A stretch of 64,000 nt of DNA from Thermodesulfobacteriota bacterium (GTDB lineage Bacteria > Desulfobacterota > Desulfarculia > JACQYL01), in NCBI GenBank assembly GCA_963675595.2, contig CAXXLZ010000002.1, positions 1,632,001 to 1,696,000 of the forward strand, written 5' to 3'. Shown in pieces: positions 2,351 to 25,292 of the stretch. Positions within the stretch are counted from its first letter, which is position 1, and each line of letters begins with the position of its first letter. A program made the position numbers and the translations under genes. The notes beneath the pieces were generated by a model. The model saw only the letters and a program-made list of their open reading frames with translations. It ran no database searches and was not told the DNA's origin.

Positions 2351-2368
2351 ACCGAAAGCTTTAAATAG
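2351..2368 (+). promoter_or_regulatory. Archaeal-type BRE-TATA-like motif
   Basis: ACCGAAAGCTTTAAATAG; TATA starts at 2360, 30 nt before the SD-less ATG at 2390. Confidence 0.55.
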
Positions 2369-2389
2369 CCGGGCGCATTCCCACTACTC

Positions 2390-2875
2390 ATGAATGGCGA
2401 CATTTCAAACCGGATGTATTCGTACGGTCCGATTGCCGGATCGAACTACTTACTCAATGAATCCTATCTGGGAACAGTCGGGGTCATGCGCACCGAACGG
2501 GATGTTTCTTCTACAGAGAATTCCACCGTCGCGCTGATGCTCGATTCCAAGGTCGACCGGTCGGATCGAAGGATCGAGGCGGTCATCGAGGCCATGGAAA
2601 AGCGAAGGCTGATCAAAGAGGAAAACCTCTCCGGCATCGAGCAGGATATTTGCACCTGCCGGAACCTCATTTTCGAGATGGGCTACAAGGTCTATCGAAG
2701 GGACAGGGACTGGATCGCGTTGGAGACCCGACAGATCGATCTTGAACGGGACCGGAGAATGGAACTTGCCGCCTATTTCAGGGACATTCTGCTTTTAGGA
2801 AAGGAACTCAGGGATACCGTGGAGTACCGGAGGTCGATAGAGGACAAGACCAAGCTGCTGGGGGGGATAAGCTGA
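2390..2875 (+). CDS. Hypothetical coiled-coil protein
   Basis: 161 aa ORF; first gene of a tightly coupled operon. Confidence 0.75.
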   Translation: MNGDISNRMYSYGPIAGSNYLLNESYLGTVGVMRTERDVSSTENSTVALMLDSKVDRSDRRIEAVIEAMEKRRLIKEENLSGIEQDICTCRNLIFEMGYKVYRRDRDWIALETRQIDLERDRRMELAAYFRDILLLGKELRDTVEYRRSIEDKTKLLGGIS

Positions 2876-2877
2876 AA

Positions 2878-3039
2878 ATGAAATACCACTACAAAGACAT
2901 CACCATGACGGACGTGGAGAAGCTCTACGAGGTGCCGGGGGCTTTTGCTCTCGCCATGGAAAAACATCAACTGGAAAAAGTGATCGTGTATTTTGTTCGG
3001 GAAATGCAGGTGCGGAGCCGTTTTGACCGATCAAAATGA
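2878..3039 (+). CDS. Small hypothetical protein (53 aa)
   Basis: MKYHYKDITMTDVEKLYEVPG...RFDRSK; fills the gap exactly and its stop overlaps the next ATG (ATGA). Confidence 0.6.
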   Translation: MKYHYKDITMTDVEKLYEVPGAFALAMEKHQLEKVIVYFVREMQVRSRFDRSK

Positions 3040-3806
3040 CCTTCAAACGAATGCTGAGCCCGTCGGCCATTCTGGCCTACAAACGGGATGAGAAATTCCG
3101 GTGGGGATGCCCGAGAAAATTCTATCTGAGATACATCAGGAAACTGAAGACCAAACCCAAGATGTGCTTCATCGTGGGGCAGGTGGTTCACCAGGCAGCG
3201 GAAGCCTTTGTACGGGATTACAAAGCCGAACATTTGGAGCAGCCTTATGCGGATGCGCGAAAGCGCATATTGGACAGGGTGGATTTCCTATGGAACTCGA
3301 GAATTCTCGAGATTCGGAAGCTCTCCGGCGGTCGGGACGAAGCAGAGACCCAACTTGTTGAGGCTCGAAAGATGGCTTTGAACTGGCTTCACCAGTTTAT
3401 CCGAGAAGTAAGCAGAGGAAGAAGCCCGCCTGAGCCGGAAAAACGGCTATTGAGTCAACTTCATGGTGCCCAAGGTATCGTGGATGCCCGCTATTCTCGA
3501 GAATTCATCGAGATCAGGGATTATAAGACTTCGAAATATCAAGACATTACCCCCGACATCAAACTCCAGCTTGCGATCTATGCCCTCCTCGAGCAGGAAG
3601 TGCACGGAAAACTTCCCGATCGAGTCTCAGTCCATTTCCTGAAATTCCCATCCTCCAAAGACAATCCCAAAATTTTCAAGCCTACCCAAGAACTCGTGGA
3701 TTGGGCTGCGGAAGAAATCCGCCGAATGCACGAGCTGACCGAGTCGGAGCATGAAGAGGACTACCCCTGTCTATGCGGTGGATGGTGTGAGAGGGAATTT
3801 CAATGA
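3036..3806 (+). CDS. PD-(D/E)XK nuclease, RecB/Cas4-like family
   Basis: LSPS..GCPRKFYLRY, GQVVH, GIVD..IRDYKT, QLAIYA, C-terminal CLCGGWC (Fe-S staple-like Cys pattern). Confidence 0.85.
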   Translation: MTFKRMLSPSAILAYKRDEKFRWGCPRKFYLRYIRKLKTKPKMCFIVGQVVHQAAEAFVRDYKAEHLEQPYADARKRILDRVDFLWNSRILEIRKLSGGRDEAETQLVEARKMALNWLHQFIREVSRGRSPPEPEKRLLSQLHGAQGIVDARYSREFIEIRDYKTSKYQDITPDIKLQLAIYALLEQEVHGKLPDRVSVHFLKFPSSKDNPKIFKPTQELVDWAAEEIRRMHELTESEHEEDYPCLCGGWCEREFQ

Positions 3807-5749
3807 TCGTAACTGTTGCCGAAAAACTGAGACGGCTCGAGCCCTTCGTCTCTTCAGGAGAACTTCGGGCTCTGTGGTCGCTTTATCAGATAGAGGAGAA
3901 TCCGAGAGCCAAGAGGGAGATCGAATCCATGGTCGATTACATGCTCCTGCAGCATACGGGAGTGGCGTTCGAGAACGCCGTTATGCTGCCGCCGCCTGGG
4001 GAAGATGAAGCGGCCGGGGAATTGCAGCTCGGACACGTCTCCTATTGCGGCAAGAAGCTCTATCCTTTCGGTCTCAGAAAGGACGAGTTGATTCGCCATG
4101 TGGGACTTTTCGGGCAGACCGGTTCCGGAAAAACTACCGCTTGCATGAATCTTCTGGGAGAGTTCGTCAAGGCGAAGATTCCGTTTCTGATCTTCGACTG
4201 GAAACGAAACTACCGGGACCTTTTGACACATCCCGACTTCCGAAACGAGGACATCCTGATCTTTACCGTGGGAAGGGAGGTCAGCCCTTTCCGTTTCAAT
4301 CCAAAGATTCCTCCGCCCGGAGTGGAGTCTCCCATCTGGTCGAAGAAGCTGATGGAGATCATCGAGAAGGCTTATCTCTTAGGGCCCGGTGCGTCGGACG
4401 TTTTGATGGACGCCATGAGCCTGCCCGACTTCGCGGAAATGAAGCGCTATATCGACAAGCAAAACCGCCGAGGCAGAGAAATGCTTTGGCTGAGTTCGGC
4501 CAAGCGAACCCTGAACAGTCTCACCTTCCCGGGCTTGAATGAAGTCCTAAATTCTCATTCCCAAATTCCCATCGAAGAGTTGCTCCGAAAAAACGTGATC
4601 CTGGAATTGGACGGTCTTTCGGATTCGGACAAGACCTTCATCATCGGAAGCCTGCTCCTATGGATCTACTTCTACCGAATGCAGGAGCCGGAAAGGGAGA
4701 TTCTGAAGCACATGATCGTCATCGAGGAAGCGCATCATCTGCTTCTTCGAACGAGCAAGGAAGAGGATATCACGGACGTCATGATGAGGGAGATCAGGGA
4801 ACTCGGGGAAGGCATCGTGATCCTCGATCAGCATCCCCACAAAGTCTCAGTCTCAGCCCTTGGGAATGTCTACACCCGGATCGGCTTTCAAACCTCTCTG
4901 TCTCAAGATTTCTCGAGTTTGAGCCGTTCCCAGCTCATTCCCATTGGGAATGAGGCCTACTACGGCATGCTCAAGGTGGGAGAGGCCATTGTGAAGACCG
5001 GAAGGGTCCCGTTTCCGTTCCTGATAACGGTGCCGGAATTCAAAATCGACAAGGGAATGGTACGGGATAAACTCATCCAAGACAGGATAAACTCTCTTAC
5101 AGTTAATGAATATCATGATCATGGTTTTCCGCAAGAAAACACGTCGTTTAGGATGATTTCAAACTCGGAAACACTCTCCCCCGTGGAGCGGATTTTGTTG
5201 GAAGACATCGCGCTTCATCCTTTTGACGGAGTTCAGAAACGTTACAAGAAGCTCGGAATGAACCCTCGGGAGGGAACTCTCTGCCTGGAAGATCTCATCA
5301 CGAAAGGCCTGCTCAAAGAAGTCCTTGTGGATCGAAACCGGCTCTTTGAATTGACGCCGCAGGCTGTGGAGCACCTCCACAGAGAAGGCCTGAAACTCGA
5401 GAATTCTCGAGTTCGGGGCGGTTTGGAGCACAACTTCTGGGTCGAAAGAATAAGAGTGGCGCTCGCCGGTCAATGCCGAGTGTTGCTGGAAAAGGACAAC
5501 CTGGACCTCGTGGCGGACTGGAACGGTGGTTTGGCGGTTCAGGTCGAGACCGGCAAATCGGACATCAGGAAGAACATCGAGACCCTCTCGAACCACGCCT
5601 CCATTCAGAAGTTCATGATCGCGACAAACCCCGAAGCCCTCACCAAGATCCAATCACTCCTAGCGGTCGAAGGCATTCAAGCCTACCTCGCCAAAGATTT
5701 CATCGAAAAGATCATCCCCATCCTACTCACCGAAAAAGCGGAGCGTTAA
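3803..5749 (+). CDS. HerA/FtsK-superfamily ATPase (DUF87-like) with C-terminal wHTH and nuclease-like region
   Basis: RHVGLFGQTGSGKT Walker A, IFDWK, IVIEEAHHL Walker B, REIRELGEG..LDQHP; C-terminal DLV..AVQVETGKS. Confidence 0.85.
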   Translation: MIVTVAEKLRRLEPFVSSGELRALWSLYQIEENPRAKREIESMVDYMLLQHTGVAFENAVMLPPPGEDEAAGELQLGHVSYCGKKLYPFGLRKDELIRHVGLFGQTGSGKTTACMNLLGEFVKAKIPFLIFDWKRNYRDLLTHPDFRNEDILIFTVGREVSPFRFNPKIPPPGVESPIWSKKLMEIIEKAYLLGPGASDVLMDAMSLPDFAEMKRYIDKQNRRGREMLWLSSAKRTLNSLTFPGLNEVLNSHSQIPIEELLRKNVILELDGLSDSDKTFIIGSLLLWIYFYRMQEPEREILKHMIVIEEAHHLLLRTSKEEDITDVMMREIRELGEGIVILDQHPHKVSVSALGNVYTRIGFQTSLSQDFSSLSRSQLIPIGNEAYYGMLKVGEAIVKTGRVPFPFLITVPEFKIDKGMVRDKLIQDRINSLTVNEYHDHGFPQENTSFRMISNSETLSPVERILLEDIALHPFDGVQKRYKKLGMNPREGTLCLEDLITKGLLKEVLVDRNRLFELTPQAVEHLHREGLKLENSRVRGGLEHNFWVERIRVALAGQCRVLLEKDNLDLVADWNGGLAVQVETGKSDIRKNIETLSNHASIQKFMIATNPEALTKIQSLLAVEGIQAYLAKDFIEKIIPILLTEKAER

Positions 5750-5958
5750 GCGGATATCCCACGCAGCATCAGGCGCTTAACAAACCGTATCACCAATGCG
5801 GGTTTCCCCGGACCACCAATAGCGACTTTGTCGGGTGAAGCCTGTACCCACCGTTTTGCAGCGTGTCGTCCTTGAGGACGGCCCGCGTTCTTTCTTTAGC
5901 GAAAGCTCCGACACGCGAAATCAACAACCCGGATATTGATAAACAAAGGAGGTGACCA

Positions 5959-6258
5959 ATGGAAGCGTCCCCCCGCCTTCGGTCCGTTCTTACGGGGCTG
6001 AGGGAGGATTGGCGGGAAGCGGTGCAGACGGTCCAGCCGTGCCATCAATTCGGAGCGGAGCTGTTACTCGGCCTGATCGGCCTGCATCTCGAAGCAAAGG
6101 AAATCTTCAAAACCAATGAGTTACTCAAGAGAAAGGAGCTGTTGGATGAATTCTATGATCACCAAAAAACCGTCAGGAACGCAATCGGTTACCTCGGAAG
6201 TGAAGGAGCCGAGGAAACCGCCCCCGATCAGGATCGAGCGATGTCCGGACTGTGGTGA
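5959..6258 (+). CDS. Hypothetical protein
   Basis: 99 aa; strong SD AAGGAGGTGA. Confidence 0.7.
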   Translation: MEASPRLRSVLTGLREDWREAVQTVQPCHQFGAELLLGLIGLHLEAKEIFKTNELLKRKELLDEFYDHQKTVRNAIGYLGSEGAEETAPDQDRAMSGLW

Positions 6259-6319
6259 AATTCTTTACCGCGACGGAGGATGTCCGCTGTGCATCCGCTG
6301 CGGATGGAGCGGCTGTTAG
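6200..6319 (+). CDS. Possible small Zn-ribbon protein
   Basis: CPDCGEILYRDGGCPLCIRCGWSGC; overlaps the previous ORF; start uncertain (GTG 6200 or ATG 6116). Confidence 0.4.
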   Translation: MKEPRKPPPIRIERCPDCGEILYRDGGCPLCIRCGWSGC

Positions 6320-6351
6320 AGCATCATATCAACGAAAGAGGAGGAACGATC

Positions 6352-6609
6352 ATGAGTGAGAGCAACAAACCGGTGAGGAAGTATCGGGCAAACGGAGTCG
6401 TCGTCAGTGTTTGGGAAAACGACGGCGCAAAAGGAAACTACCATACCTTCAGTCTGCAACGCGTGTTCAAGGACGCCGACGGCAACTGGAAGACCTCGCC
6501 CAATCTTCGGGCGGGTGATCTCCCTACCGCCGCGGAATTGTTTCGGCAGGCATTCCTGGACTTCGGCATCAAGTCGATGGGCCAGGCAGGAGAAGACATT
6601 CCGTTTTAG
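6352..6609 (+). CDS. Putative PC4/Whirly-like ssDNA-binding protein with SSB-type acidic tail
   Basis: SD GAGGAGG; VSVWEN..YHTFSLQRVFKDADGNWKTS..LRAGDLP; ends GEDIPF. Confidence 0.7.
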   Translation: MSESNKPVRKYRANGVVVSVWENDGAKGNYHTFSLQRVFKDADGNWKTSPNLRAGDLPTAAELFRQAFLDFGIKSMGQAGEDIPF

Positions 6610-6681
6610 GGAAACATCAAGTTCACGGGCTGTCCGAGCATTGTGGACAGCCCCAATCAAGGGTTTTCCAGGGAGGTTTCT

Positions 6682-7137
6682 ATGATGAAGGAAAGAATCG
6701 ATATCGTGAGTGTCAAAATGGTCAGGGACGGCTCGATCCCCTATGGGAAGAAGCCCATAAGAGGGCCGCAGGACTTGGCTGAACTCGGCATGAAGTTCAT
6801 GGGAAACGCGGACCGGGAGATGTTTCTTCTGGTCTGCCTGAACGTCAAGAACTACGTGAACTGTATCCATCTGGTAAGCGTGGGAACCTTGAGCCAGACC
6901 ATTCTGTCCGTACGGGAAATCTTCAAGACCGTTTTCCTGAGCAATTCCGCTAAAGTGGCGTTCATCCATAATCATCCCAGCGGATGTCCGGAACCCAGCG
7001 CCGAAGATATCGCGATCACTGAGAAACTCACCCGGTGTGCCGAGCTCTTCGATGTCGGGGTGGTGGATCATGTGGTCGTGGGCGATGAAGGCCGCTTTGA
7101 AAGTCTGTCCGAGCGGGGCGTCATCAAGACTCATTGA
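6682..7137 (+). CDS. radC: RadC-like JAB domain protein
   Basis: DREMFLLVCLN, SVGTL, VREIFK, HNHPSGCPEPSAED, DHVVVG; SD GGGAGG. Confidence 0.9.
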   Translation: MMKERIDIVSVKMVRDGSIPYGKKPIRGPQDLAELGMKFMGNADREMFLLVCLNVKNYVNCIHLVSVGTLSQTILSVREIFKTVFLSNSAKVAFIHNHPSGCPEPSAEDIAITEKLTRCAELFDVGVVDHVVVGDEGRFESLSERGVIKTH

Positions 7138-7218
7138 TCATACATACTGGAATTAGTGTCGACCTAACGAGGCGGGAACCATGGAGTTCCAGGCCTTTTT
7201 TTGTTTCAGGAGGAAGAA

Positions 7219-7500
7219 ATGGATCATGCGCTTTACGTGAATGTTGAAGAGAAGCAGTGCCCGGAGTGCAACGGAATCCTCCAGGTGTTCGATGAATGGG
7301 AAATCTGTGAGAGCTGCGGCCGCAGTTGTTTCAACCGGAAGAAGATGATCCTGAAGCCCTGCAGGGATCGGCCCGAGCCGGCAACGTGCGGACGCTGCGG
7401 AAACATCTACCGAATCGAGTGGCTCTTTTTGGGGCTCGATTACAACGACTTCGGCGACAGATTTTGCCCCTACTGCGGACATCACACGAGCTTGTTTTAG
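7219..7500 (+). CDS. Cys-rich Zn-finger hypothetical protein
   Basis: CPEC, CESC, CGRC, CPYC; SD AGGAGG. Confidence 0.7.
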   Translation: MDHALYVNVEEKQCPECNGILQVFDEWEICESCGRSCFNRKKMILKPCRDRPEPATCGRCGNIYRIEWLFLGLDYNDFGDRFCPYCGHHTSLF

Positions 7501-7510
7501 GAGGAGGGTC

Positions 7511-7699
7511 ATGCGGATTCAGTGCCGGTTTTGCGGCAGTGAGTACTTCCTTCAAGTTTTCATCGAAGGAAGGGAGTTTCCCTATCTCGATCAGTGCCGC
7601 TGCGTATTCTGTGGCGGAGAATTGGAAAAGCGGGAGGTGATTTACCATGTGGAACATACCGACGAAAGAGGAATTGGACAGGCTTCCGAGGCTCTATGA
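7511..7699 (+). CDS. Small Zn-ribbon protein
   Basis: CRFC...CVFC; SD AGGAGG; 3' end overlaps the next gene. Confidence 0.55.
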   Translation: MRIQCRFCGSEYFLQVFIEGREFPYLDQCRCVFCGGELEKREVIYHVEHTDERGIGQASEAL

Positions 7700-7958
7700 G
7701 ACCGAGGGAACGCCCATTGAAGAGAAGTTGGTCAGGCTGCATTTTTTCCTTGGAGCCTTTGACTGGTACATCGTGGAATACGACGGAGAAGACCTGTTCT
7801 GGGGCTATGCGATCCTGGGTGACCCGGAAATGGCTGAGTGGGGCTATATCTCCTTCAGCGAACTTCGAAAGTTGAAGGTGAGGCCGGGATTCGAAGTGGA
7901 TCGCGACCTCTATTGGGAGCCCAGGAAGGTCAAGCTGATCTTTGACAGTTCAAAATAA
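7647..7958 (+). CDS. DUF2958-like protein; last ~10 codons displaced by IS1634
   Basis: LPRLYETE, LHFF..DWYIVEYD, EWGYISFSEL, EVDRDLYW; original C-terminus DVNKIRLRK* lies at 9771-9800. Confidence 0.8.
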   Translation: MWNIPTKEELDRLPRLYETEGTPIEEKLVRLHFFLGAFDWYIVEYDGEDLFWGYAILGDPEMAEWGYISFSELRKLKVRPGFEVDRDLYWEPRKVKLIFDSSK

Positions 7959-9765
7959 CTAATGCAGTAATTTCAGCTGCTTATACGAAAAAGAAAGGTT
8001 TATGGCACTACGTTTTGGTGCTCCTGGAGAGTCTGTAAAGTGGGCGGCGGTTTGAGGCCAACGGCTTGGAAGATGCGGTAGGCGTCGCCTTGGAATTCCG
8101 TTCTGAGGAGGTAGGATTTTTCTGCGACCTGTAGATGGATGGCTTTGAAGGCGTCGAGGTCGAGCAGAACCTGGTCCCAAGGGATGTCGATTTCTTTGGT
8201 TTTGAGCTGTTTCTGCAGCGCGATCTTCAGGTATAGGGCCAGGAAGTTGCAGAAAATGTGACCTTGAACGCGTTGACACCGTTGATGGAACACGGGCCTG
8301 ACTTCCAGGGCGGATTTGAGGTCCCGGAAGGCTCTTTCCACCTGCCACAGTCGCTTGTAGGTGACCGCGACTTCATCGGCGGGAATGTCGGTACTGGTGA
8401 GGAGAACATACTTGCCGTCGAAGCGGGCGTCGTCCTTGACCTTGGCGGGATCGATGCGCACGGTTTCCCGGTCGAGTTTGATGAATTTCCTGAAGCCCTT
8501 GTTTCCCACCAGAGACTGGGGCCCCTGTTTTTTCAGGGTGGTTTTCAACTTTTCCACAAGGGCCGATCGGGTGGCCTCGTCTTTGGCTGCTTGGTCTTGG
8601 TTGTAGCAGAGGACGTAACGGCATCCGTTCAGATGAATCTCCTTGAACCACAAGGTGGGAGTGAGCGCTTGGTAGTAGCCCGGAGTGTCCACCACTTGGC
8701 CTCGGACATCCTGGTAACGGCGCATGGGGATGCCCACGATGTAGTCGATACCGGCACGCTCCAGTTCCACCAGATTGTCGACGCCGACCATACCGCGGTC
8801 GGAGACCAGGACCACGTTGTTCAGGGAGAACCGACGCTTGACCAGGGCGATGATGCGCTTGATGGTGGTAACGTCCGCCGTGTTGCCCTCCCAAAATTGA
8901 CAGGAAAGGGGATATCCCTTTCGGGACATGACGACGCCCACCAACACCTGTTTCCGATCGGGACGATGGTCCTTGGAGAACCCGTATCGAGCCAACTCGG
9001 CCGGCCCCCGGCCCTCGAAGTAGACCGAGGTGGTGTCGAAGAAAACGAGATCCACCCCGTAATCGAAGAGGTCGCGGCCCCGACGGAAAAGTTCCTTTTC
9101 GATTTCGGGCTGATACTCGGCCAGGAAGTCCATGGATCGATAAAGGTGCTGAAGCTCCAGGTCGTCGAAGCCTTCACCGTGGACGTTCTGAATCCAACGG
9201 CTCGCGGCGAGATCGGATCCCGGACGGACCAAGCGTTGGCAGACGCAGGCAAAGACCGCGCGCTCTAGATCGAAGCGATAATCGGAGCGAGAAGCGAGAG
9301 ATCGGAGTACCACATCGAGCCCCAAGGTCTTCCAGAGTTTCTCGATCACCAAAACGGTTCCCCAGGACTTGGCCCAGTCCGCCTTGACACTACCTTCCTT
9401 ATAGAGACTGATGACCTGATTCTGGGTGGAGAACTTGGCGAGACTGGTAAGAACTCCGTCCAAGGCACCCGATTCACGGAGCCTGTCGAGACGGCCCAGC
9501 GTGCATATAACTTTCTGTTTTACCTTCTTATCCTGGCGATAGTTCTCCACGATCTGAAGATATTCATGCTCGGATCCGCCGCTTTTGACCTTTTTGACGC
9601 GTGCAAACATGAAACAAATTGTACGGAATACAGGTCGGCGGAGTCAAGGAAAAAATCGGACATATTGGCACTACGTTTGGAGCCTCGGAAAAAGGCCAGC
9701 CTAATCATTTCGGTAAGTTAGGCGGGAGAGGCCCACTTTTTCACCCTCCAACTGTCAAAGATGAG
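7935..9765 (-). mobile_element. IS1634-family insertion sequence (1831 bp)
   Basis: Terminal IRs CTGATCTTTGACAGTT / AACTGTCAAAGATGAG; 5-bp target duplication TCAAG (7930-7934, 9766-9770); subterminal direct repeat TGGCACTACGTTT. Confidence 0.9.
8000..9610 (-). CDS. IS1634-family DDE transposase
   Basis: YLQIVENYR..KVKQKVICTLGRLD, VFFDTTSVYFEG, VSDRGM, YKRLWQVERAFRDLK. Confidence 0.95.
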   Translation of the reverse strand: MFARVKKVKSGGSEHEYLQIVENYRQDKKVKQKVICTLGRLDRLRESGALDGVLTSLAKFSTQNQVISLYKEGSVKADWAKSWGTVLVIEKLWKTLGLDVVLRSLASRSDYRFDLERAVFACVCQRLVRPGSDLAASRWIQNVHGEGFDDLELQHLYRSMDFLAEYQPEIEKELFRRGRDLFDYGVDLVFFDTTSVYFEGRGPAELARYGFSKDHRPDRKQVLVGVVMSRKGYPLSCQFWEGNTADVTTIKRIIALVKRRFSLNNVVLVSDRGMVGVDNLVELERAGIDYIVGIPMRRYQDVRGQVVDTPGYYQALTPTLWFKEIHLNGCRYVLCYNQDQAAKDEATRSALVEKLKTTLKKQGPQSLVGNKGFRKFIKLDRETVRIDPAKVKDDARFDGKYVLLTSTDIPADEVAVTYKRLWQVERAFRDLKSALEVRPVFHQRCQRVQGHIFCNFLALYLKIALQKQLKTKEIDIPWDQVLLDLDAFKAIHLQVAEKSYLLRTEFQGDAYRIFQAVGLKPPPTLQTLQEHQNVVP

Positions 9766-9803
9766 TCAAGGACGTGAACAAGATTCGACTCCGGAAATGA
9801 GGC

Positions 9804-9826
9804 AACCGTCGTCAGACGGTTTTTTT
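9804..9826 (+). terminator. Intrinsic terminator-like hairpin
   Basis: AACCGTC-GTCA-GACGGTT followed by a T run, right after the displaced DUF2958 stop. Confidence 0.6.
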
Positions 9827-9850
9827 GTCTCTTACGAAAGGAGAACGGTT

Positions 9851-10144
9851 ATGTGGTCAGTCGGGATCAACGAGAACGAGGCTCCGGTCTACGTCATCAT
9901 CAATCCCCGTCATCCGCTGGGGCCCATGGTGGTGGGTCAGGATGACCCGGTTGGATTCCGAGATCCGATTGAGGCGGTTTCAGAAGTCGGGGTCTTGCGA
10001 CAAAGGTTCGGCGGACATTTGATCCTTTGCATGGCTGTTCCGGTGGAGGAGCCGGTGGCCGGCAGAGGCAGGCTTGAGCAGTTCAACGAAGAAGCGGAAG
10101 CGGAGGGATTTCCCTACGAACTCGTGGAGGAGTATCTCTTCTAA
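9851..10144 (+). CDS. Hypothetical protein
   Basis: SD AAAGGAG before ATG 9851; 97 aa. Confidence 0.7.
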   Translation: MWSVGINENEAPVYVIINPRHPLGPMVVGQDDPVGFRDPIEAVSEVGVLRQRFGGHLILCMAVPVEEPVAGRGRLEQFNEEAEAEGFPYELVEEYLF

Positions 10145-10179
10145 ACAAAGAAGAAAGGAATCAAAGAGCATGGATGGCG

Positions 10180-14883: not shown

Positions 14884-14899
14884 CTGAAAGGAGACGGCG

Positions 14900-17914: not shown

Positions 17915-17937
17915 CTGTTCAGACTATGGAATGATCT

Positions 17938-19797
17938 TTATTGCCTTGGCCGGGTTGTACATCGTCCGTCTCGGTCCCTCTTCGTCAGCAGCTTTTCAGC
18001 AAGAATTAGGGCGTCCACCGGCCAGAAACATTCCGGGCGGGGCTGATGCACGTCGGGAAGCCCCTCAATCGGACGGCATGCGAGGATCCGGTCTGTCCAT
18101 CTGGCAGGAACCGCTTCCCGGCCGTACACCGCACCGAGAAGAGCGCCGCATATGGCTGCGTTGGTATCCGTGTCCCCTCCTCGCATCACTGTGTCTACAA
18201 CGCCTTCCTCAAAGTTCGGAGCATGGAGGAGCTGCCAAAGGGCGTTCCAGAAAGCTATTAATACCCATCCTTGTTTGTGCACATAGCCTGGAGGCGGATC
18301 CGATGCCGCTCTTGTGATGGCGTCCATGAGCGAGTCGTCCACATCCGTATCCCTGGCTCGGTCGAGCACAAAGTTATAGACCTCTTTGGGTTTGGAGCCG
18401 GTACGGATTGTATGGGCAATGGCCACGGTGAATAAGCCATTGGCTTGCAGGCAAACCAGATGAGGATGGGTCAGTGCCGCATCCCGCCACGCCCACTCCC
18501 ACACCTGACTCAGATCAAAATTTGTCCCGAAAATACCCAACGGGCTCACGCGCATCAAGGCGCCATTGGCCTGACTATCCGGATTTGGTAGGCCGCGAAG
18601 ACCTCCGGCAACGGTCATGCCGCAGTCGAAAGGCCCCGAGTGAAGCCAGAACACATAGGCTTTACGGGCTTCCTCGGCATCGTATGTAACCTGTGTAATG
18701 AGGGTCCGAGCCAGCAGCGGCGCCATCTCGGAATCGTCCGTGGGCTGTCCGGCAATGGTGTTAAAGGTTCCTCCGTCTGCCAATTCCCTTAGCCCTTTGG
18801 GATATCTAACCTTTATCCATTCAGGGCGTTTGAACTCCACCAGACTGCCCAGCGCGTCCCCTGCCAGTTGGCCCAACAGGCACCCTTGTGCCCGGGAAAG
18901 CAGGCCGGCATCCGGGGATTCGCCGCTCGATTTCGGCCAAGTAAGCGAATAGGGACTGCGCGTTTCAGGACGATTGAAAACCTCGCTCCAATCTTGTTTC
19001 TCCAGATGATCCACGAGGGCCTTGCAGCCTCCAAACACACGGAAGCTGAAACTGAAGCTCAAATCCGCCGAATATCGAACCGGCCGTCCCCTCTCATCGT
19101 ACAAATCCCCTCCTGCCCCCATCAGAATCGCGTGTCCGCCGGCCAAGTCCCAAAACTCCGGACTATTGAGCGACACCGCCGCGTCGCCTTCACCCGCCGC
19201 CACGAGCGCCAGACGGTAGGCAATACTTGGCATTGCCCTATAACGCATGGGATAAACCAGTCGCGCATTCGCCTCCGCATTGTGGTCCGCATGGTGCGAC
19301 AAGAGAACCGTGCAGTTCGAGCTCGGTTCATCCGGCCAGGTTCTTACCACCATCCGGCCGTTTCGCAAGACCGGCCCGCCTTTTGTCCAGGCAATAAGAT
19401 CGCCGTTATCATCTGGAAAATTGTACGCATACACCACGCCCAACACAGGCTTGCTCTTTTCCAACAGAGCTATGGAGACCGCGGCACCCCTAAAACCCGA
19501 CATAAAAGCGCTTGTGCCATCGTTGGGGTCCACCACCCAATATCGTTCCTCTCCACTGCTACATATCCGCGCACGCCCCAATTCTTCTCCGAAAAAACCG
19601 TCTTCCGGAAACGTCCTATCTATCCGCCTTAGGATGAGCTCTTCCGCGATTTGATCCAGTTCCGCATGATGACTCGTCCCACGTGGACCGCCTTGGCGAT
19701 TGAATTCATCACGGAGGACAGAACCTGCAGAAAGTGCGGCTTCAGTGGCAGTGGTGAGTTCGGGGTCGTAAGACGCGTGGGAAGTCATAGTGTTCAC
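17938..19797 (-). CDS. Inositol-monophosphatase-family domain fused to ADP-ribosylglycohydrolase
   Basis: N-terminal GEE..WVVDPNDGT, WDLAGG; C-terminal GQLAGDALG, GQPTDDSEM, ANGALMR, GGDTDTNAAICGALLGA; start may be ATG 19788. Confidence 0.9.
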   Translation of the reverse strand: MNTMTSHASYDPELTTATEAALSAGSVLRDEFNRQGGPRGTSHHAELDQIAEELILRRIDRTFPEDGFFGEELGRARICSSGEERYWVVDPNDGTSAFMSGFRGAAVSIALLEKSKPVLGVVYAYNFPDDNGDLIAWTKGGPVLRNGRMVVRTWPDEPSSNCTVLLSHHADHNAEANARLVYPMRYRAMPSIAYRLALVAAGEGDAAVSLNSPEFWDLAGGHAILMGAGGDLYDERGRPVRYSADLSFSFSFRVFGGCKALVDHLEKQDWSEVFNRPETRSPYSLTWPKSSGESPDAGLLSRAQGCLLGQLAGDALGSLVEFKRPEWIKVRYPKGLRELADGGTFNTIAGQPTDDSEMAPLLARTLITQVTYDAEEARKAYVFWLHSGPFDCGMTVAGGLRGLPNPDSQANGALMRVSPLGIFGTNFDLSQVWEWAWRDAALTHPHLVCLQANGLFTVAIAHTIRTGSKPKEVYNFVLDRARDTDVDDSLMDAITRAASDPPPGYVHKQGWVLIAFWNALWQLLHAPNFEEGVVDTVMRGGDTDTNAAICGALLGAVYGREAVPARWTDRILACRPIEGLPDVHQPRPECFWPVDALILAEKLLTKRDRDGRCTTRPRQ

Positions 19798-20529
19798 TTT
19801 GACAGTGTGGAAATGCTACTCGATTCTAACCTATCACAGAGGTCCGACCTACTTGGAAGTAGCAAGATGGATGGTTGGCGACGAGACATGGTAGGCCCTC
19901 GGTCACATAATCTTCCCGGCCATCTGCCGGAGTCGGCCGTCCCGGTCCATCAGAAAGATTCCGTTCGACATACATTGCCCCAATGGAAAGTCAGTTCGTT
20001 TTCCATTCGCTTGGAAGTCATGTTATATGTTGCGCCCTTTCCGATCAGGCGGGCGGCGCCCCAGTAAGACTGTCAAGAATGACGCCATCGATCCAACCAA
20101 CTGAAAACAAGACAGTTTCTTTCACACTCTGTCTCGGATTGCTTAGAAAAAAGCTGGCAATTCGTATGCTACACCGCTTGCTGCATTGCTAAAAAACTGA
20201 GCATCCTTTTTCTGACTGTTCCAAAGATGCATATTAGAATGGGATGTTTTCTTCAAGTTCCGCAATCCTGATTATTTAGTTGAATTGCTGTATTCATCAA
20301 AATAATTTCCAGTTAACAGCCAAATTGTACAGATTATGGATCCATGTCAAGATTCTTGAGTTTTTTATTGTATTCTCGAAAGCAGACTTGGGGGGTCCAG
20401 TTTCGTATCACGCCTCCAACGGCTAAATCCGCAAGTCTCCTTCACAACCTGAAAAAAAGGGCACCAATGCCTCACTCTGGGATGAAAAAAGGTTTGTTCT
20501 CCTGGATAAGAATAGGAAAAAGAGATCGT

Positions 20530-20973
20530 TCAAGCCGTTAACTCTTCTACTTCTACCGAGTCATTTGTCGGGAGACGAGCCTCTGAGACTTCGTAGCGCT
20601 CACTTCCCTTGTACTTCGGACGCATGCGCCGGAATTCCGCTGTCACAGGGACAAGTCGTATCAGGACGGTCTTGTTCTTGAGCGGTGAATGTTTCTTTAG
20701 CTCAGAGAGAAGGCTCACCTGACTGATCGTCCAGGTCATTTCTTTTCCCTCGTATGAAACGTCAAACCAGAGATCGTGGGCGTTACTGTCGAAATTGTTC
20801 TCGGTCTCTTTCCGAGGACCGTCGCTCAAGAAAGTCACTTCGAAACCTTCACGTTTCATTTGTTCTGTCGGTTTGAAAAACGGTGGCAGATCGCCACTGT
20901 TTCCCATATTATCCCAGCTTGGGCAGCCGGTATGGTGTGTGCCTGATGTGGCATATTTTTGTCCATTTGCCAT
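20530..20973 (-). CDS. Hypothetical protein, possible OB-fold ssDNA-binding protein, divergent from cdc6
   Basis: SD GGAGGTG; beta-rich FEVTFLSDGP..LWFDVSYEGKEMTWTISQVSLL; acidic C-terminus; fold is a guess. Confidence 0.6.
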   Translation of the reverse strand: MANGQKYATSGTHHTGCPSWDNMGNSGDLPPFFKPTEQMKREGFEVTFLSDGPRKETENNFDSNAHDLWFDVSYEGKEMTWTISQVSLLSELKKHSPLKNKTVLIRLVPVTAEFRRMRPKYKGSERYEVSEARLPTNDSVEVEELTA

Positions 20974-21159
20974 GGTTTGCACCTCCGAATCGGGTTTTTT
21001 CGATTCAAAGATTGAGAATAGTAGCTTTTATTTATAATTCTTTCTATTATTGTTCAAATTTACCAAAAGGCCATAGAGTGTGGGAAGATTTCTTGTGGAA
21101 ATCAAAAAATATTTTCGCAGGCATGCTCTACTTACACTTTGTCGCTACTGCAAAGTGGT

Positions 21160-21244
21160 TTAGTTTATAAAGTTTTCTTGAAATATTAATCTTTTATATT
21201 ATATTATATAATTTCTATATAGAAATAAATAATAATAAGGAAAA
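21160..21244. other. Very AT-rich tract, candidate DNA-unwinding element
   Basis: TTTTATATTATATTATATAATTTCTATATAGAAATAAATAATAATAAGG in a ~55% GC background; adjacent to the ORB-like boxes once the IS is removed. Confidence 0.55.
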
Positions 21245-22794
21245 CTAGAGTTTAGAGCCATGCGGGGCAGCCAAGTTTGTATAGAAGAGCATAGTTCTCC
21301 AAGACGGGTTGAATACCGTTGACGTAAGGCTTTGAGATGATTGACTGAACACGGATATCAGGCAGCGCGCCCCAAGTCTTCCGGAGAATCGGTGAATTCC
21401 GGTTGGAATTTTTTGGATTTCCGGTTCCACATGGCTCGCACGTTTAAGTTGCCGAAAAGACGACCGATGGCTGCGGCCATCCAGCCGGCGGTGGCGGGCC
21501 TGTTCTTTCTCCAAGGGATTGGAAACATCGTATAGGCCGCGTTGGGACCCAGGCAGAGCGCCAAGAGCCGTGGCAAGCCGTAGGCCAGGCACAAGATCAT
21601 GCTCCATCGAGCCAATGTCTGCCGTGTCTGCTGCCAAGCATTTTTCAGTCCGAACAGGTGCTTGATCTCGTTGAACATGGGCTCGGTCCACCATCGTCGT
21701 GCATAGCGTGTAATCACTTCCGCGCCGTCCATGTCGGGATCGGTACTGATCAGAAGATGCCAATCGGACCAAGAGGGGTTGTCGGACATAAACCGGCACC
21801 ACACGATCTTGCACAACCGGCCGTCCAGGAAGCGGACTTTGGCTTTGGTTTGGTAGAACTGGAAAACTCGTTCCGAGCCGTAGGCAAAGAGGGTTTTCTC
21901 CACCGGACGACAGAATCGTCCGATGTTTTCCAACGTGAGTTTTTCCCCATACTTTCTGGGTCTGCCCCGTTTCTTCCGAGGCGGATTGTCCGGAGGCAAA
22001 AACAGGGCGGTATCTTTGCGGACTTGGCCGATGACCGTCACACCATCGCGAATCAGGGGAACCACCAGGGAGCTTTTCATATACCAGGCATCGAGCAGCA
22101 GAATAATGAGAAAGCGATCCGGCAGCCAAGTCATGAGAACGGACATCAAGAGCCGCGCCGCGTCCAGTTTGGTGGTGTTCCCTTTTTTGCGGATGAGCCG
22201 AAACAAGAGGGGAAACGCGGCTACCCGGCCCTTGTGGCGGCAGATGACAGCCAGAGAAACCCGAAGCTGTCCCCACAGGAATTTGGGGCGGTTGGGCCGG
22301 TGCGCGTGATCGTAATGCCAACCGGCGCAGGGAGCTTTCTTGGACGATCTGGGCAAAGGGAAGTCGTCTATGGCGAACTCGATGGATCGGTTTGGAATCC
22401 GTTTCAGGATCAGGCGCATCCATTGCCGGGCTAGCGCAAGCCATTGGAATCGGCCCTTTTCGATGGCCTTGTAATAGGCGGTCCAGGACAACTGGGGCCG
22501 AACGGCCAGAAGCGCGGAAGAAATATGGCCGCCGCGGCAGACCATACATCCCATCAGGAGTTCCAGAAGAGTCGGAGCTATTCTGCACGGAACGGCCTGA
22601 AATAGAAAGGAAATCCACTGCGATAGGAGCATAAGTGCTTGAGCCGTCGAATCCATTGGTTGACCCCCAAGGAAAGGTTTCTTTCCTTAAAGGGCAGCCA
22701 AAGGCGGCCGCGCATCCGCGCGGCAATGTCAAGTACTTTGTTGTCTTTATTCGCATTTTTCCTATACCAAGGGTCGCCAGACTCTAAACTCTAG
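21245..22794 (-). mobile_element. IS701/IS4-like insertion sequence (1550 bp)
   Basis: IRs CTAGAGTTTAGAG / CTCTAAACTCTAG; 9-bp target duplication TAAGGAAAA (21236-21244, 22795-22803). Confidence 0.9.
21358..22656 (-). CDS. DDE transposase (DDE_5/IS701-like)
   Basis: FAIDD..PRSSKKAP, LLDAWY, LLISTD..VITRYARRWWTEPMFNEIK. Confidence 0.9.
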   Translation of the reverse strand: MDSTAQALMLLSQWISFLFQAVPCRIAPTLLELLMGCMVCRGGHISSALLAVRPQLSWTAYYKAIEKGRFQWLALARQWMRLILKRIPNRSIEFAIDDFPLPRSSKKAPCAGWHYDHAHRPNRPKFLWGQLRVSLAVICRHKGRVAAFPLLFRLIRKKGNTTKLDAARLLMSVLMTWLPDRFLIILLLDAWYMKSSLVVPLIRDGVTVIGQVRKDTALFLPPDNPPRKKRGRPRKYGEKLTLENIGRFCRPVEKTLFAYGSERVFQFYQTKAKVRFLDGRLCKIVWCRFMSDNPSWSDWHLLISTDPDMDGAEVITRYARRWWTEPMFNEIKHLFGLKNAWQQTRQTLARWSMILCLAYGLPRLLALCLGPNAAYTMFPIPWRKNRPATAGWMAAAIGRLFGNLNVRAMWNRKSKKFQPEFTDSPEDLGRAA

Positions 22795-22828
22795 TAAGGA
22801 AAAGAAAACATCACCAAAAACTGAAACT

Positions 22829-22850
22829 GAAAGTTCCACCGGAAACTTTC
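22829..22850. promoter_or_regulatory. ORB-like (origin recognition box) palindrome
   Basis: GAAAGTTCCACCGGAAACTTTC; core GTTCCACCGGAAAC resembles the archaeal ORB core GTTCCAGTGGAAAC; ~90 bp upstream of cdc6. Confidence 0.6.
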
Positions 22851-22896
22851 CCTCTCTCAAAATCCGGTTCACTTTCAAGTGACAACAGGAATTTGC

Positions 22897-22914
22897 ACCG
22901 AAAACTATTTATAG
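22897..22914 (+). promoter_or_regulatory. Archaeal-type BRE-TATA-like motif for cdc6
   Basis: ACCGAAAACTATTTATAG; TATA at 22906; TTG start at 22935, ATG at 22941; no SD. Confidence 0.55.
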
Positions 22915-22934
22915 ATGTCCTGTAGAAGAATCGC

Positions 22935-24209
22935 TTGAAAATGTCCGGTGGAGATCATTCAGAAGCTTCCCTGCAATTCATTCGCACATTGCATGACTCA
23001 CAGAAGAATCATCGCCTTATTTTGAACCCCAACTATTTGGACGACGAGAAGTTGCCTGAGGAAGAGCGGACTTCGGTTCTGAAGGAGATTTTTGATCGGA
23101 ATATCCGGGAAGAGCAGCTGAAACGCATCGTCTGTCATCTGACTCCGATCCTGGACGGCGATCATCCGAGTTCATTACTGGTCTTCGGTCCTACGGGTTC
23201 AGGGAAAACGGTTTCCCTCATTCACGTCCTTTCGACGTTTCAGGAATATTGCCGAACTCAGTCCGTCGGGTTCCAGTATAGATACGTGGACTTGACCTCC
23301 CCCAGGTCTTCTTTCGGAGCGTTGAACGAGCTTGCGAGAGCCCTCAATGAATCGATTCGCACCTACAGGAAAGGCATTCCCATCGATCAGATGCAGGAAC
23401 GGATCATCGAAGAGCTGAACCGATTCCAGGGGTTCTTGTGCCTCTTGATTGATGAGGCGGATAATATCAAGCCCAATGCGGATGAATTTATCACCTTCCT
23501 TGGAAAGACCCTTCCAAGAAAGATTCCCTGCCGGTTGGTTCTCATCATGGTCACGAACAAACTGAACTGGGACAAGATGCTGGACCCGCGGATTCTGAGT
23601 GTTCTCAAGAAGACGGACATGCTCTTTGAACCCTATAACGCCTTGGATTTGATCGAAATCCTGAATCTTCGAGTGGAAAAGGCTTTGGATAAGTCAAAGG
23701 TGGACGAGGCCGCTGTCCGAAAGATCGCGGCGTTGGCGTCGCGAGAAACCGGTGATGCGAGAAAGGCGGTTGAACTTCTCTCAAAGTCGGCCAAAGTCGC
23801 ACAGGAAACCGGCGGCAGGCTGTCCGAAGAAATCGTGGATCTGGCTGAGCACAGATTGGAAATGGACAAAACAGAGGAAATGGTTCGGGCTCTCGCTCCG
23901 CAGCAGAAACTTGCGCTTCTTTCCTGCTACGATCTTCTGGCCAAGACTTCGAAACGGGTCACTACGGGCGAGGCCTATGATCGATACGCCAATTTCTGCG
24001 AGTTGGAACGGGTCAGGCCGCTCACACAACGAAGGTTCTCGGACATTATCGGTTCCCTTGACCTCTACGGACTGATCAACGCCCGGCTGATATCACGCGG
24101 CAGGTATGGCCAGACAAGAGAAATCTCAAGGTCGCTTCCCAAGGAAACCCTCAGCCGGTTCTTATCAAGAGAAGGATTCGGTTCCGGGTCGTTCGGCGGT
24201 CTTCATTGA
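22935..24209 (+). CDS. cdc6: Archaeal-type Orc1/Cdc6 replication initiator (AAA+ plus winged helix)
   Basis: REEQL, LVFGPTGSGKT, LLIDEAD, LDPRILS, FEPYNALDLIEILNLRV, GDARKAVELL, TTGEAYDRY..FC..LTQRRFSDII.SLDLYGLI...SRGRYGQTREI: the full archaeal Cdc6/Orc1 signature set. Confidence 0.92.
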   Translation: MKMSGGDHSEASLQFIRTLHDSQKNHRLILNPNYLDDEKLPEEERTSVLKEIFDRNIREEQLKRIVCHLTPILDGDHPSSLLVFGPTGSGKTVSLIHVLSTFQEYCRTQSVGFQYRYVDLTSPRSSFGALNELARALNESIRTYRKGIPIDQMQERIIEELNRFQGFLCLLIDEADNIKPNADEFITFLGKTLPRKIPCRLVLIMVTNKLNWDKMLDPRILSVLKKTDMLFEPYNALDLIEILNLRVEKALDKSKVDEAAVRKIAALASRETGDARKAVELLSKSAKVAQETGGRLSEEIVDLAEHRLEMDKTEEMVRALAPQQKLALLSCYDLLAKTSKRVTTGEAYDRYANFCELERVRPLTQRRFSDIIGSLDLYGLINARLISRGRYGQTREISRSLPKETLSRFLSREGFGSGSFGGLH

Positions 24210-24224
24210 CGGACCGTTGGGCTG

Positions 24225-24371
24225 CTATCCGCCTATCTTCACCCGTGTTGTGAACTTCCGGTGGCACTTGGTGCACATCCGGAGTCTGACTTTTCCCTGG
24301 GCAAGGGGCCTGTATCCTTTCCAGTGGCTTTGGGTTGCGCCGCAGTACGGGCATTTGTAGGGTCTTGGCAT
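24225..24371 (-). CDS. Small Zn-ribbon protein (48 aa)
   Basis: MPRPYKCPYCGATQSHWKGYR...RMCTKCHRKFT; SD GAGGTGA; convergent with cdc6. Confidence 0.7.
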   Translation of the reverse strand: MPRPYKCPYCGATQSHWKGYRPLAQGKVRLRMCTKCHRKFTTRVKIGG

Positions 24372-24404
24372 CGGTATCACCTCGGGACTTGGTAAGGCCC
24401 TGGT

Positions 24405-24422
24405 GTATATAAACTTTTCTTT
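24405..24422 (-). promoter_or_regulatory. Archaeal-type BRE-TATA-like motif (minus strand)
   Basis: AAAGAAAAGTTTATATAC; the +30 position falls at the start of the GAGGTGA SD of the Zn-ribbon gene. Confidence 0.55.
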
Positions 24423-24437
24423 CCTCTGCGGTCTTTG

Positions 24438-24455
24438 AGCGAAAGGTTTATATGA
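24438..24455 (+). promoter_or_regulatory. Archaeal-type BRE-TATA-like motif
   Basis: AGCGAAAGGTTTATATGA; TATA starts at 24447, 30 nt before the SD-less ATG at 24477. Confidence 0.6.
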
Positions 24456-24476
24456 AGGCTTTGCTTCCCAACAAAG

Positions 24477-25292
24477 ATGGAATGCGGAATACCGGAACCG
24501 GCTCACTCTGGCCAACACTCAGCAATAGTCTTGGACTTGGAAGAGCCGGAGGCGGCCGTCGGCCGGATTATCTGGGAGTTTGTCTTCGGCGTTGCTCAAT
24601 ACAAGGCGTCGGCCCGAGACTACTACTATGACGTTATGCTGGCGGATCATCCGTGTCCTGTTTGCGGCGAAAATCTGCGGATGCTTGAACCCGGTTCGGC
24701 GGCCTGTGCAAGCGGTCATGAACTCGACCCCACAGTGGTGTTTCAAAAGAGCGGCTGCTGCGGAGCAAAGCTGGTCAGGCGGTGTCTTCATTATGCGTGC
24801 GCTTCTTGTGGGAAGACCGTGCCGTCCCGGTTCTTGTTCGATGAACGGGTCTTCGACAAGGTCTATTTCCGGCAACGGATGGCGGAGTCCAGGGCCAAGA
24901 CGATAAAACGAAAAGAAATGATAAGGCTCGCCCGTCGAGAAGAGCGGTCGCGCGGGTTGACGTTACTGGAGGAACCGCAGCTTGATCGTTTGCCTGGTTT
25001 TACTGAAGCGTTGGCAGGCTTCATCGGCTTTGATGTGGGAGTTTGGGACGAGGAGTTCTCCCTGACTGGGAATCTTCCTGGGCTGTCCCGGTACAGACGC
25101 CATATCCTGGATTCAGTGAACAGGTATCGACAAATCATGTTTTCCAGGATCGATCTCCTGATCGATGATGCCCGAAGAGATCGGGCGATGCGCTTTGTCG
25201 CTCTGATCTTTCTGCTTCAGGATGGGGAAGTGCGGGTCACACAATACAGTTCGGATATTGAAATCGAGCCGCCCTACAATGAAATTGACTGA
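24477..25292 (+). CDS. Zn-finger protein with ScpA/kleisin-like C-terminal winged helix
   Basis: CPVCG..C..GH, CCG..CASCG; C-terminal RFVALIFLLQDGEVRVTQYSSDIEI resembles the ScpA C-terminal motif. Confidence 0.65.
   Translation: MECGIPEPAHSGQHSAIVLDLEEPEAAVGRIIWEFVFGVAQYKASARDYYYDVMLADHPCPVCGENLRMLEPGSAACASGHELDPTVVFQKSGCCGAKLVRRCLHYACASCGKTVPSRFLFDERVFDKVYFRQRMAESRAKTIKRKEMIRLARREERSRGLTLLEEPQLDRLPGFTEALAGFIGFDVGVWDEEFSLTGNLPGLSRYRRHILDSVNRYRQIMFSRIDLLIDDARRDRAMRFVALIFLLQDGEVRVTQYSSDIEIEPPYNEID

Follow-up and report, generated by a model that had tools for sequence, protein, structure and literature searches.

The stretch of DNA analysed here (64,000 nucleotides in full length, hereafter the window) covers positions 1,632,001 to 1,696,000 of contig CAXXLZ010000002.1 in assembly GCA_963675595.2, the genome of a bacterium of the phylum Thermodesulfobacteriota. 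It carries the gene for an Orc1/Cdc6-type replication initiator (cdc6) next to a putative archaeal-type origin, together with a recurrent motif, GAAA followed after two bases by a TATA-like octamer, which has the layout of an archaeal promoter. The host genome comprises 6.79 Mb in three contigs with 56% G+C and is rated 98% complete; its 16S gene matches the bacterial model. The window lies wholly inside an island of ∼93 kb (C2:1618672–1712168) integrated at a tRNA-Arg(ACG) gene. A tyrosine integrase (79.7 bits on Phage_integrase) is located at the far right of the island, adjoining the tRNA gene, and a 49-nt stretch of the latter is repeated exactly 93 kb leftward and again 141 kb leftward. 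These tRNA-derived direct repeats therefore place the window inside an island, with a second island in tandem. An integrase, a tRNA target and flanking direct repeats, by which integrative genomic islands are recognised, are all present. Three copies of a 46–49-nt piece of tRNA-Arg(ACG) are found within C2:1571114–1712168, which also suggests two tandem islands at one tRNA gene.

The island backbone is present in four copies in the genome, namely the one in the window and three others (B, C and D) at 88–97% identity, two of them sharing its contig and the third lying on a different one. The stretches of the window shared with the other copies are 2571–7934, 9790–15770 and 22792–26055. Copy D is associated with a different tRNA-Arg-like sequence, on contig C1, and has a repeat at a distance of about 92 kb. 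An assembly chimera was rejected because the tRNA repeats bound the island and its insertion sequence (IS) copies also occur elsewhere on both large contigs.

The initiator gene occupies positions 22935–24209 (+) and encodes a protein of 424 aa, which scores 256.5 bits against the family model TIGR02928 (cut-off 181.3) and 86.1, 46.9 and 50.1 bits against Cdc6_C, Cdc6_lid and AAA_22, respectively. The protein has the AAA+ domain, the lid and the C-terminal winged helix of an Orc1/Cdc6 initiator and matches the family model. All four cdc6 copies are intact and the ratio of nonsynonymous to synonymous divergence (dN/dS) is 0.007–0.042; given such strong purifying selection, cdc6 must be expressed. 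Upstream of the gene lie a stretch of 92% A+T (21181–21242), the putative unwinding-element half of an origin, and a box resembling archaeal origin recognition boxes (ORBs) with a TTCCA-N2-GGAAA core (22830–22853). A multi-copy IS within the origin (21243–22795), with TAAGGAAAA repeated at both borders, separates ORB1 from the AT-rich stretch. Three sequencing runs compared over 15000–26200 yielded contigs with the character of DNA assemblies; in two of these runs a single contig connects position 21235 to 22795 with the IS absent, so that a form lacking the IS exists, be it in these samples or as a paralogue.

The same arrangement precedes cdc6 at nearly all loci: an AT-rich stretch, a box with the core TTCCA-N2/3-GGAMA and then (∼35 nt) an A-rich run with a TTTAAATA-like box, followed by a smaller related box and a further box overlapping the gene start. 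The core boxes are in inverted orientation around the AT-rich stretch, and the layout recurs in at least 20 loci, including L011, L012, L015, L023, L027 and L021. We call these boxes ORB-like by comparison with the ORB consensus. Inverted boxes, an AT-rich stretch and an adjoining initiator gene are all found here, so that, as far as sequence layout goes, the locus would qualify as an archaeal-type origin. No MCM-type helicase or other archaeal partner of Orc1 was noticed among the open reading frames (ORFs) of the island in general scans.

A preliminary description of this DNA had listed six 18-mers carrying the motif and had given the distance of most of them from the nearest translation signal. 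Their coordinates and strands proved exact (for the two minus-strand sites the coordinate denotes the 5′ end), and so did the spacings. The unit consists of GAAA (once GACA), two free bases and an 8-bp octamer resembling TTTAWATA, and distances are counted below from the first T of the octamer. P1 (2351–2368, +) precedes the first gene of a backbone operon, whose ATG at position 2390 lies at +30 and lacks a Shine-Dalgarno sequence (SD); in copies B, C and D a P1-type box stands before a different first gene with its ATG at +31. P2 (16021–16038, +), which has GACA instead of GAAA, is followed by the ATG of a 32-codon ORF at 16060 (+30). In the other three copies P2 keeps all 12 core positions (GACA plus octamer), with one flanking position of the 18-mer altered; the spacers are unrelated and the ORF is a different one, yet the ATG is still at +30. 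P3 (22897–22914, +) is the box before cdc6, with the TTG of the gene (22935) at +29 and a second ORB-like box overlapping the gene start. Its 18-mer is identical in all four copies and the 20 nt upstream of it vary.

The next two boxes are placed back to back in the 105-nt gap between divergent start codons, where they are the sole conserved AT-rich elements. P4 (24438–24455, +) has an ATG (24477) at +30, whereas P5 (24405–24422, −) stands before a gene for a zinc-ribbon protein and has at +30, as the preliminary description had noted, an SD (the first G of GAGGTGA), with the ATG at +43. P6 (21163–21180, −) points away from the origin and is followed by a hairpin; the nearest ORF (20530–20982, −) starts ∼170 nt downstream. 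One further promoter of the same kind was found 4 kb past the window end (C2:1700213, −), where an ATG at +31 opens a 392-aa ORF in a distal conserved piece of the island. An extra match at 18247–18264 (+; pattern match at 18250) lies antisense within an ADP-ribosylglycohydrolase/IMPase gene in a variable region and is not followed by a long ORF. It is probably a chance occurrence or an antisense start and was excluded from the promoter count.

At all sites GAAA or GACA is located two bases upstream of the octamer, always on the side facing away from the gene. The starts at 2390, 22935 and 24477 have no SD upstream, and most internal genes of the P1 operon have one. If the ATG is taken as +1, the octamer covers −30 to −23 and GAAA −36 to −33, with a T-rich spot at −12/−11 and mostly a pyrimidine at −1 and a purine at +1. 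In archaeal promoters, leaderless ones included, the TATA box is centred about 27 nt and the transcription factor B recognition element (BRE) about 33 nt upstream of the start, according to PMC5316973. The layout given there is matched by the boxes, in agreement with the earlier suggestion that they have the geometry of archaeal BRE/TATA promoters with leaderless mRNAs: the purine-rich GAAA and the 8-bp A/T box downstream of it would be centred near −34.5 and −26.5. The likeness extends to the mostly pyrimidine −1/purine +1 pair, the weak T-rich −12/−11 spot and the combination of SD-less first genes with SD-led internal ones. As expected of a BRE, GAAA is purine-rich, is placed upstream of the TATA-like box and keeps one orientation relative to the gene; it does not vary between the four copies. 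In most backbone promoters an ATG or SD lies 30±1 nt from the octamer's first T, a distance that would suit a TATA box if transcription begins at that signal.

In order to quantify the motif, the preliminary description was written as a pattern (GAMA, 2 nt, TWTWWAWR) and searched on both strands. The genome contains 64 matches in 6.79 Mb, equivalent to 0.6 expected per 64 kb, and eight of these fall within the window's first 32 kb. When the genome is divided into 32-kb bins, the four with the most matches (8, 7, 7 and 5, together 27 of the 64) are the four copies of the one element. Among the eight matches in the window, 22919 (−) represents the cdc6 box seen from the opposite strand, and 18250 (+) is the antisense match within a coding region mentioned above; seven distinct sites are left, six of them those described previously. 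No match was found in the window's 38 kb of defence cargo. The motif is restricted to the element backbone, and the comparison of element with host chromosome that had been proposed earlier places it far above chance.

The selection footprint was examined by aligning seven promoters across the four copies without gaps and calculating the mean pairwise difference per site. The values were 0.31 for the upstream flank, 0.00 for GAAA, 0.13 for the two free bases, 0.045 for the octamer and 0.28 for the spacer; synonymous divergence of cdc6 between the copies is 0.22–0.31. Both boxes are frozen under purifying selection and their surroundings drift at a roughly neutral rate. No other conserved element was detected in the footprints within 30 nt upstream or 33 nt downstream of the boxes. 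Within the spacer only the T residues at +18 and +19 are conserved, and weakly so (15 of 23 and 13 of 23); archaeal promoters have an A/T-rich proximal element at the matching position (PMC5316973).

The distance to the start codon was assessed separately with a profile. Among in-island hits scoring at least 16, 15 of 31 have an ATG at +29 to +31, corresponding to 12 of 24 distinct box-plus-spacer variants; the same spacing was seen for 3 of 32 hits outside the islands and at 4.5% of random positions. Behind P1 and P2 the copies have different genes, and their similarity breaks off immediately downstream of the box; nevertheless the ATG is found at +30 or +31. A chance origin of the motif is ruled out by enrichment, spacing and selection footprint. 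Two high-scoring matches outside the islands, C2:2954589 (+) and C2:3713190 (−), have an ATG at +29 and +31, respectively, and small clusters of matches occur near C2:962887–963218 and C2:3712226–3713387; such outside matches may mark other elements with the same type of promoter.

Transcription in the host is of the bacterial kind as far as its genes tell. Nine matches to sigma-70 region 2 were found in the genome. A six-frame search of this 98%-complete genome gave no match with E≤0.001 to the TATA-binding protein (TBP; PF00352) or to TFIIB (PF00382), the family of archaeal transcription factor B (TFB), and none to RpoH of archaeal-type RNA polymerase (PF01191); all three domains were found in the four archaeal genomes used as controls. 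The single-subunit polymerase domain PF00940 gave no match here, but none in the control genomes either. The preliminary description had rightly supposed a bacterial host devoid of TBP and TFB and had suggested a search for genes resembling them, which we extended to the whole genome with the result just given. Neither TBP and TFB nor an archaeal-type RNA polymerase was detected, and an archaeal transcription machine in this genome was set aside on the outcome of the three domain searches.

The boxes do not resemble the common bacterial promoters either. A sigma-70 consensus scan of 15500–26200 returned eight sites, against 7.3 expected from shuffled sequence, and none at P2–P5. By eye, no −35-like hexamer was found 17 nt upstream of the boxes, P1 included, and the octamers lack the TAnnnT pattern; the pair of TTGACA-like and TATAAT-like hexamers 16–18 nt apart that defines a sigma-70 promoter is absent. 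Promoters of the extracytoplasmic function (ECF) type, with a −35 GAAAC and a −10 element, as well as sigma-54 and FliA promoters, were also considered and set aside, since by eye there was no conserved second element at the right distance.

For other species, cdc6 relatives at 56–65% identity were collected; ten of the loci are in records of bacterial genomes and about fourteen are contigs from metagenomes. Motif and spacing are both conserved at the zinc-ribbon gene: a GAAA-N2-TATA-like box is found 29–31 nt before GAGGTGA in six of seven loci of other genomes and metagenomes, with unrelated spacers. At cdc6 the distance between box and gene start varies. Among 49 profile hits scoring at least 14 in 31 loci, ORFs of at least 40 aa start at +30 to +32 in five cases, and these ORFs are unrelated (L017, L033, L034 and L051/L054, the last pair being two copies in one genome). 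At L027, L011, L023 and L012 the gene next to P4, which encodes a 271-aa protein, has a 40-nt leader with its own SD. The conserved stretch between box and SD at these loci contains a short hairpin with a compensating change (GGTC/GACC versus GGAC/GTCC) and can also be read as a 7-codon mini-ORF.

The distribution of cdc6 bears on the origin of the module. Hundreds of relatives are 60–69% identical to the Cdc6 protein, and among the matches listed all close relatives with an organism label are bacterial, mostly Thermodesulfobacteriota or 'delta proteobacterium', the exceptions being one metagenome-assembled genome of Hydrogenedentes and one entry labelled 'uncultured bacterium'. The nearest locus named as archaeal among the same matches is 36% identical, and no relatives were found among viral contigs. 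Of 401 genomes sampled from the phylum, 3 (the host included) have the gene, with 2–4 copies in each; it is thus rare but multi-copy. The earlier proposal of a recent inter-domain import or shuttle does not agree with these bacterial relatives and the distance of the nearest listed archaeon. Recent import also lacks support because the island sits at a bacterial tRNA-Arg and contains host IS copies, a group II intron and bacterial mobile-element genes. An older connection is suggested by the distant cdc6 loci L021 (named Woesearchaeota, the 36% identical one), L037, L039 and L040, which have the same core box upstream of the gene. The order at L021 is AT-rich stretch, ORB, GAAA-N3-TTTATTAAA (GAAAGCC-TTTATTAAA), small ORB-like box and gene. 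With the same order and box at this locus, the cdc6 promoter and origin look as if they had been inherited as a unit from an archaeal-type ancestor, and archaeal ancestry of the Orc1/ORB module is plausible on sequence grounds.

The genes adjoining cdc6 encode four small proteins that are predicted to bind DNA. The zinc-ribbon gene (24225–24371, −) is convergent with cdc6 and is kept across species; its product is 48 aa long, and the orthologue at L011 scores below threshold against both the NrdR zinc ribbon (24.1 bits, cut-off 27.2) and Ogr/Delta (22.4 bits, cut-off 26.3). The 271-aa protein (24477–25292, +), likewise conserved beside cdc6, has two zinc ribbons and a C-terminal winged helix in its predicted fold (pLDDT 78.7). 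In a Foldseek search of this model the best matches were kleisin C-terminal domains (E 4e-3), and its likeness to kleisin- or MarR-type winged helices is weak. The third protein, of ∼120 aa (25279–25647, +), is about 60% identical across species and has a helix-turn-helix predicted by eye, and the fourth, of the 137-aa type, is represented by a C-terminal part (25825–26067, +) that appears winged-helix-like by eye. Family and structure searches gave no family or meaningful solved relative for either of the last two. Similarity in the 137-aa-type gene runs upstream to about 25660 without ATG, GTG or TTG where the L011 orthologue starts; an ATC is present 6 nt after GAGGTGA, and the stretch 25653–26067 could have an odd start codon or be a damaged gene. 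Another candidate, a 303-aa ORF (L022:8831–9742, −, which is C2:1704831–1705742), gives a borderline match to sigma-70 region 4 (25.4 bits, cut-off 25.7). It is not a general reader of the boxes because the 10-kb stretch that contains it has no counterpart in the other three copies.

The rest of the backbone is formed by the operon behind P1 (2390–15772, +), whose genes were identified by Pfam matches and which has paralogous copies at 90–97% identity. It encodes a 161-aa ORF, a PD-(D/E)XK nuclease, a HerA-like ATPase, RadC, DUF2958, an AAA ATPase, DUF1257 and DUF3150. An IS at 7934–9769 interrupts the operon, and a group II intron splits the AAA ATPase gene into two halves (10265–11212 and 13750–14232), between which lies an ORF for a reverse transcriptase/maturase/HNH protein (11798–13660). 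By their Pfam matches, the backbone genes apart from cdc6 are of the kinds commonly carried by bacterial mobile elements. Genes for conjugation were not recognised on the island. The defence-type cargo in the window comprises an AddAB-like pair, WYL regulators, ARPP-1 and a restriction-modification set, which was read as type III from its Pfam matches (a ResIII helicase with an endonuclease domain and an N6_N4 methylase). The cargo at 26200–43516 (AddAB-like nuclease/helicase, uracil-DNA glycosylase-like protein, WYL/WCX, ARPP-1 and a double AAA ATPase) is ∼96% identical to C2:4705694–4723314, which is not among the four backbone copies.

Taken as a whole, the boxes would serve as promoters for the conserved backbone in a family of tRNA-Arg islands of ∼90 kb in Thermodesulfobacteriota, islands that appear to carry an archaeal-type replication module, in which ORB boxes and an AT-rich stretch for unwinding accompany the Orc1/Cdc6 gene. 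The comparisons above establish that the motif exists, has a set orientation, is confined to the backbone, bears a footprint of selection and keeps a fixed distance to translation signals. From that distance we infer a transcription start 30±1 nt downstream of the octamer's first T; the first genes would then be leaderless, with the A of the ATG as +1, and the zinc-ribbon mRNA would begin at its own SD. Bacterial RNA polymerase would be guided to these starts by something other than the canonical sigma-70 −35/−10 pair, probably by an island DNA-binding protein, for which the four small proteins beside cdc6 are the candidates. The signal most likely arrived long ago with the Orc1/ORB module from an archaeal ancestor and would since have been kept by selection in bacterial hosts. 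That the backbone promoters start transcription at +30 and are read in a bacterium by a non-canonical route is a proposition for and against which we see about equal weight. The more far-reaching version, in which the islands have kept a full archaeal set of cis-signals and use it in bacteria (an ORB origin with Orc1/Cdc6, BRE/TATA promoters at which transcription starts ∼30 bp downstream, and leaderless first genes), is possible and we advance it tentatively.

Several points weigh against starts at +30. We know of no mechanism by which a bacterial polymerase would start 30 bp past a TATA-like box with no −10 element. No factor reading the box was identified among the proteins examined, and for the 271-aa protein neither a TFB nor a sigma chain was among the matches listed. 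In other species the distance from the cdc6 box to the first in-frame start is 27–33 in 7 of the 17 loci that could be anchored and 42–57 in the remaining 10 (three more loci could not be anchored), and some homologues of the 271-aa protein reach further upstream than the ATG at +30. P6 has no ORF nearby. As to the statistics, the four element copies are paralogues and their match counts are not independent; the divergence of the P1 and P2 flanks is inflated because the ungapped alignment compares replaced cassettes there; and the core information content of the profile is circular because the profile was trained on sites that it then finds.

The variable cdc6 distance is also in line with a different reading of the octamer, namely as a −10-type element for the host polymerase, with transcription starting ∼14 nt after the first T, SD-less leaders of 16 nt and the present spacing left over as an archaeal relic. 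Recognition could be by the housekeeping sigma, by any of the host's eight further members of the sigma-70 family or by a small factor resembling a sigma, of the kind that acts at phage T4 late promoters. AT-rich 8-mers look like −10 boxes, some promoter classes need no upstream −35, the host has nine matches to sigma-70 region 2, the zinc-ribbon gene would get an ordinary 30-nt leader, and with 10 of 17 cdc6 loci at 42–57 the spacing is not absolute. However, the boxes end in ATA followed by G or C, without TAnnnT by eye, and the sigma-70 consensus scan finds nothing at them. A relic would not hold the ATG at +29 to +31 in 12 of 24 variants, and still less in front of cassette genes that are unrelated and between species with completely diverged spacers; the invariant GAAA two bases upstream would have no role in a promoter consisting of a −10 element alone. 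We consider this reading rather unlikely, while granting it a real chance.

Promoter function itself would be in doubt if the boxes were binding sites for a regulator or an architectural protein (Orc1/Cdc6 itself, for instance, or any of the small proteins with a zinc ribbon or a winged helix), and the true promoters were weak and had escaped recognition. The GAAA half does resemble half of the ORB core, several predicted DNA-binding proteins are encoded beside cdc6, and an Orc1 paralogue serves as a transcription regulator in Sulfolobus (PMC6061795). Set against this, every site faces a gene at a fixed distance from translation signals, no other conserved element was detected within 30 nt upstream or 33 nt downstream, and the 105-nt gap occupied by P4 and P5 leaves little room for separate promoters; we regard the proposal as improbable. 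A true shuttle, whose backbone is expressed and replicated mainly in archaea (for example, syntrophic partners) and is mostly silent in the bacterium, would account for an origin layout, BRE/TATA geometry, leaderless first genes and a weak −11 T-rich element that an archaeon could read, as well as for the failure to notice an MCM-type helicase or archaeal Orc1 partner among the scanned island ORFs. It is hard to reconcile with the absence of a close relative in an archaeal genome among the matches listed (36% identity for the nearest named archaeon), with a tyrosine integrase at a bacterial tRNA-Arg, with the collected host IS elements and group II intron, with SD-led internal genes matching the bacterial anti-SD, and with 2–4 copies per bacterial genome in 3 of the 401 sampled genomes of the phylum. 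We judge such a shuttle very improbable.

Boxes and island were also compared with known systems. The boxes differ from archaeal promoters in that they reside in a bacterial cell with sigma factors and in that their spacing before cdc6 varies between species. The origin resembles archaeal ones in its Orc1/Cdc6 gene, in the inverted TTCCA-N2/3-GGAMA boxes around an AT-rich stretch and in the box over the gene start, but it is located on an integrated bacterial island and, in the window copy, ORB1 has been separated from the AT-rich stretch by an IS. Late promoters of phage T4 have TATAAATA at −10, and its middle promoters have a MotA box at −30 and keep the sigma-70 −10. As at the T4 promoters, where a phage factor redirects the host polymerase, an AT-rich box or a box centred at −30 takes the place of the −35; unlike them, the island boxes are at −30 and not, as the late boxes, at −10, and by eye they lack the sigma-70 −10 of the middle promoters. 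The very small zinc-binding protein encoded by the element recalls the Ogr/Delta activators of P2/P4 late genes, although the Ogr_Delta match is below threshold. P2 late promoters keep a −10 and have a dyad near −55, in which they differ from the island boxes. With tRNA-integrating islands the element shares the tyrosine integrase, the tRNA-Arg(ACG) target, the 49-nt direct repeat, defence cargo that varies and a tandem second island; it differs from them in its Orc1/ORB replication module and in a promoter type of its own. No report of Orc1/Cdc6 islands or of archaeal-type promoters in bacteria was found in the literature searched, which was mostly outside subscription journals, and within that literature the Orc1/ORB island family of Thermodesulfobacteriota has no earlier description.

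Transcription initiation is one of the sharp divides between bacteria, where sigma factors read −35/−10 elements, and archaea, where TBP and TFB read TATA and BRE. The islands place on the bacterial side of this divide an element whose promoters are archaeal-like in sequence and spacing, are kept by purifying selection and stand beside an archaeal-type origin. Cultured relatives, Desulfosarcina variabilis and strain NaphS2, make the question directly testable. If the full set of archaeal cis-signals is indeed in use, an island factor unrelated in sequence to TBP and TFB would place the polymerase by a TATA-box ruler, and Orc1 could start replication without an archaeal replisome. Starts mapping to +14 would mean that an archaeal promoter was re-used as a −10 box after inter-domain transfer, and starts mapping to +30 would reveal a hitherto unknown way of positioning the bacterial polymerase.

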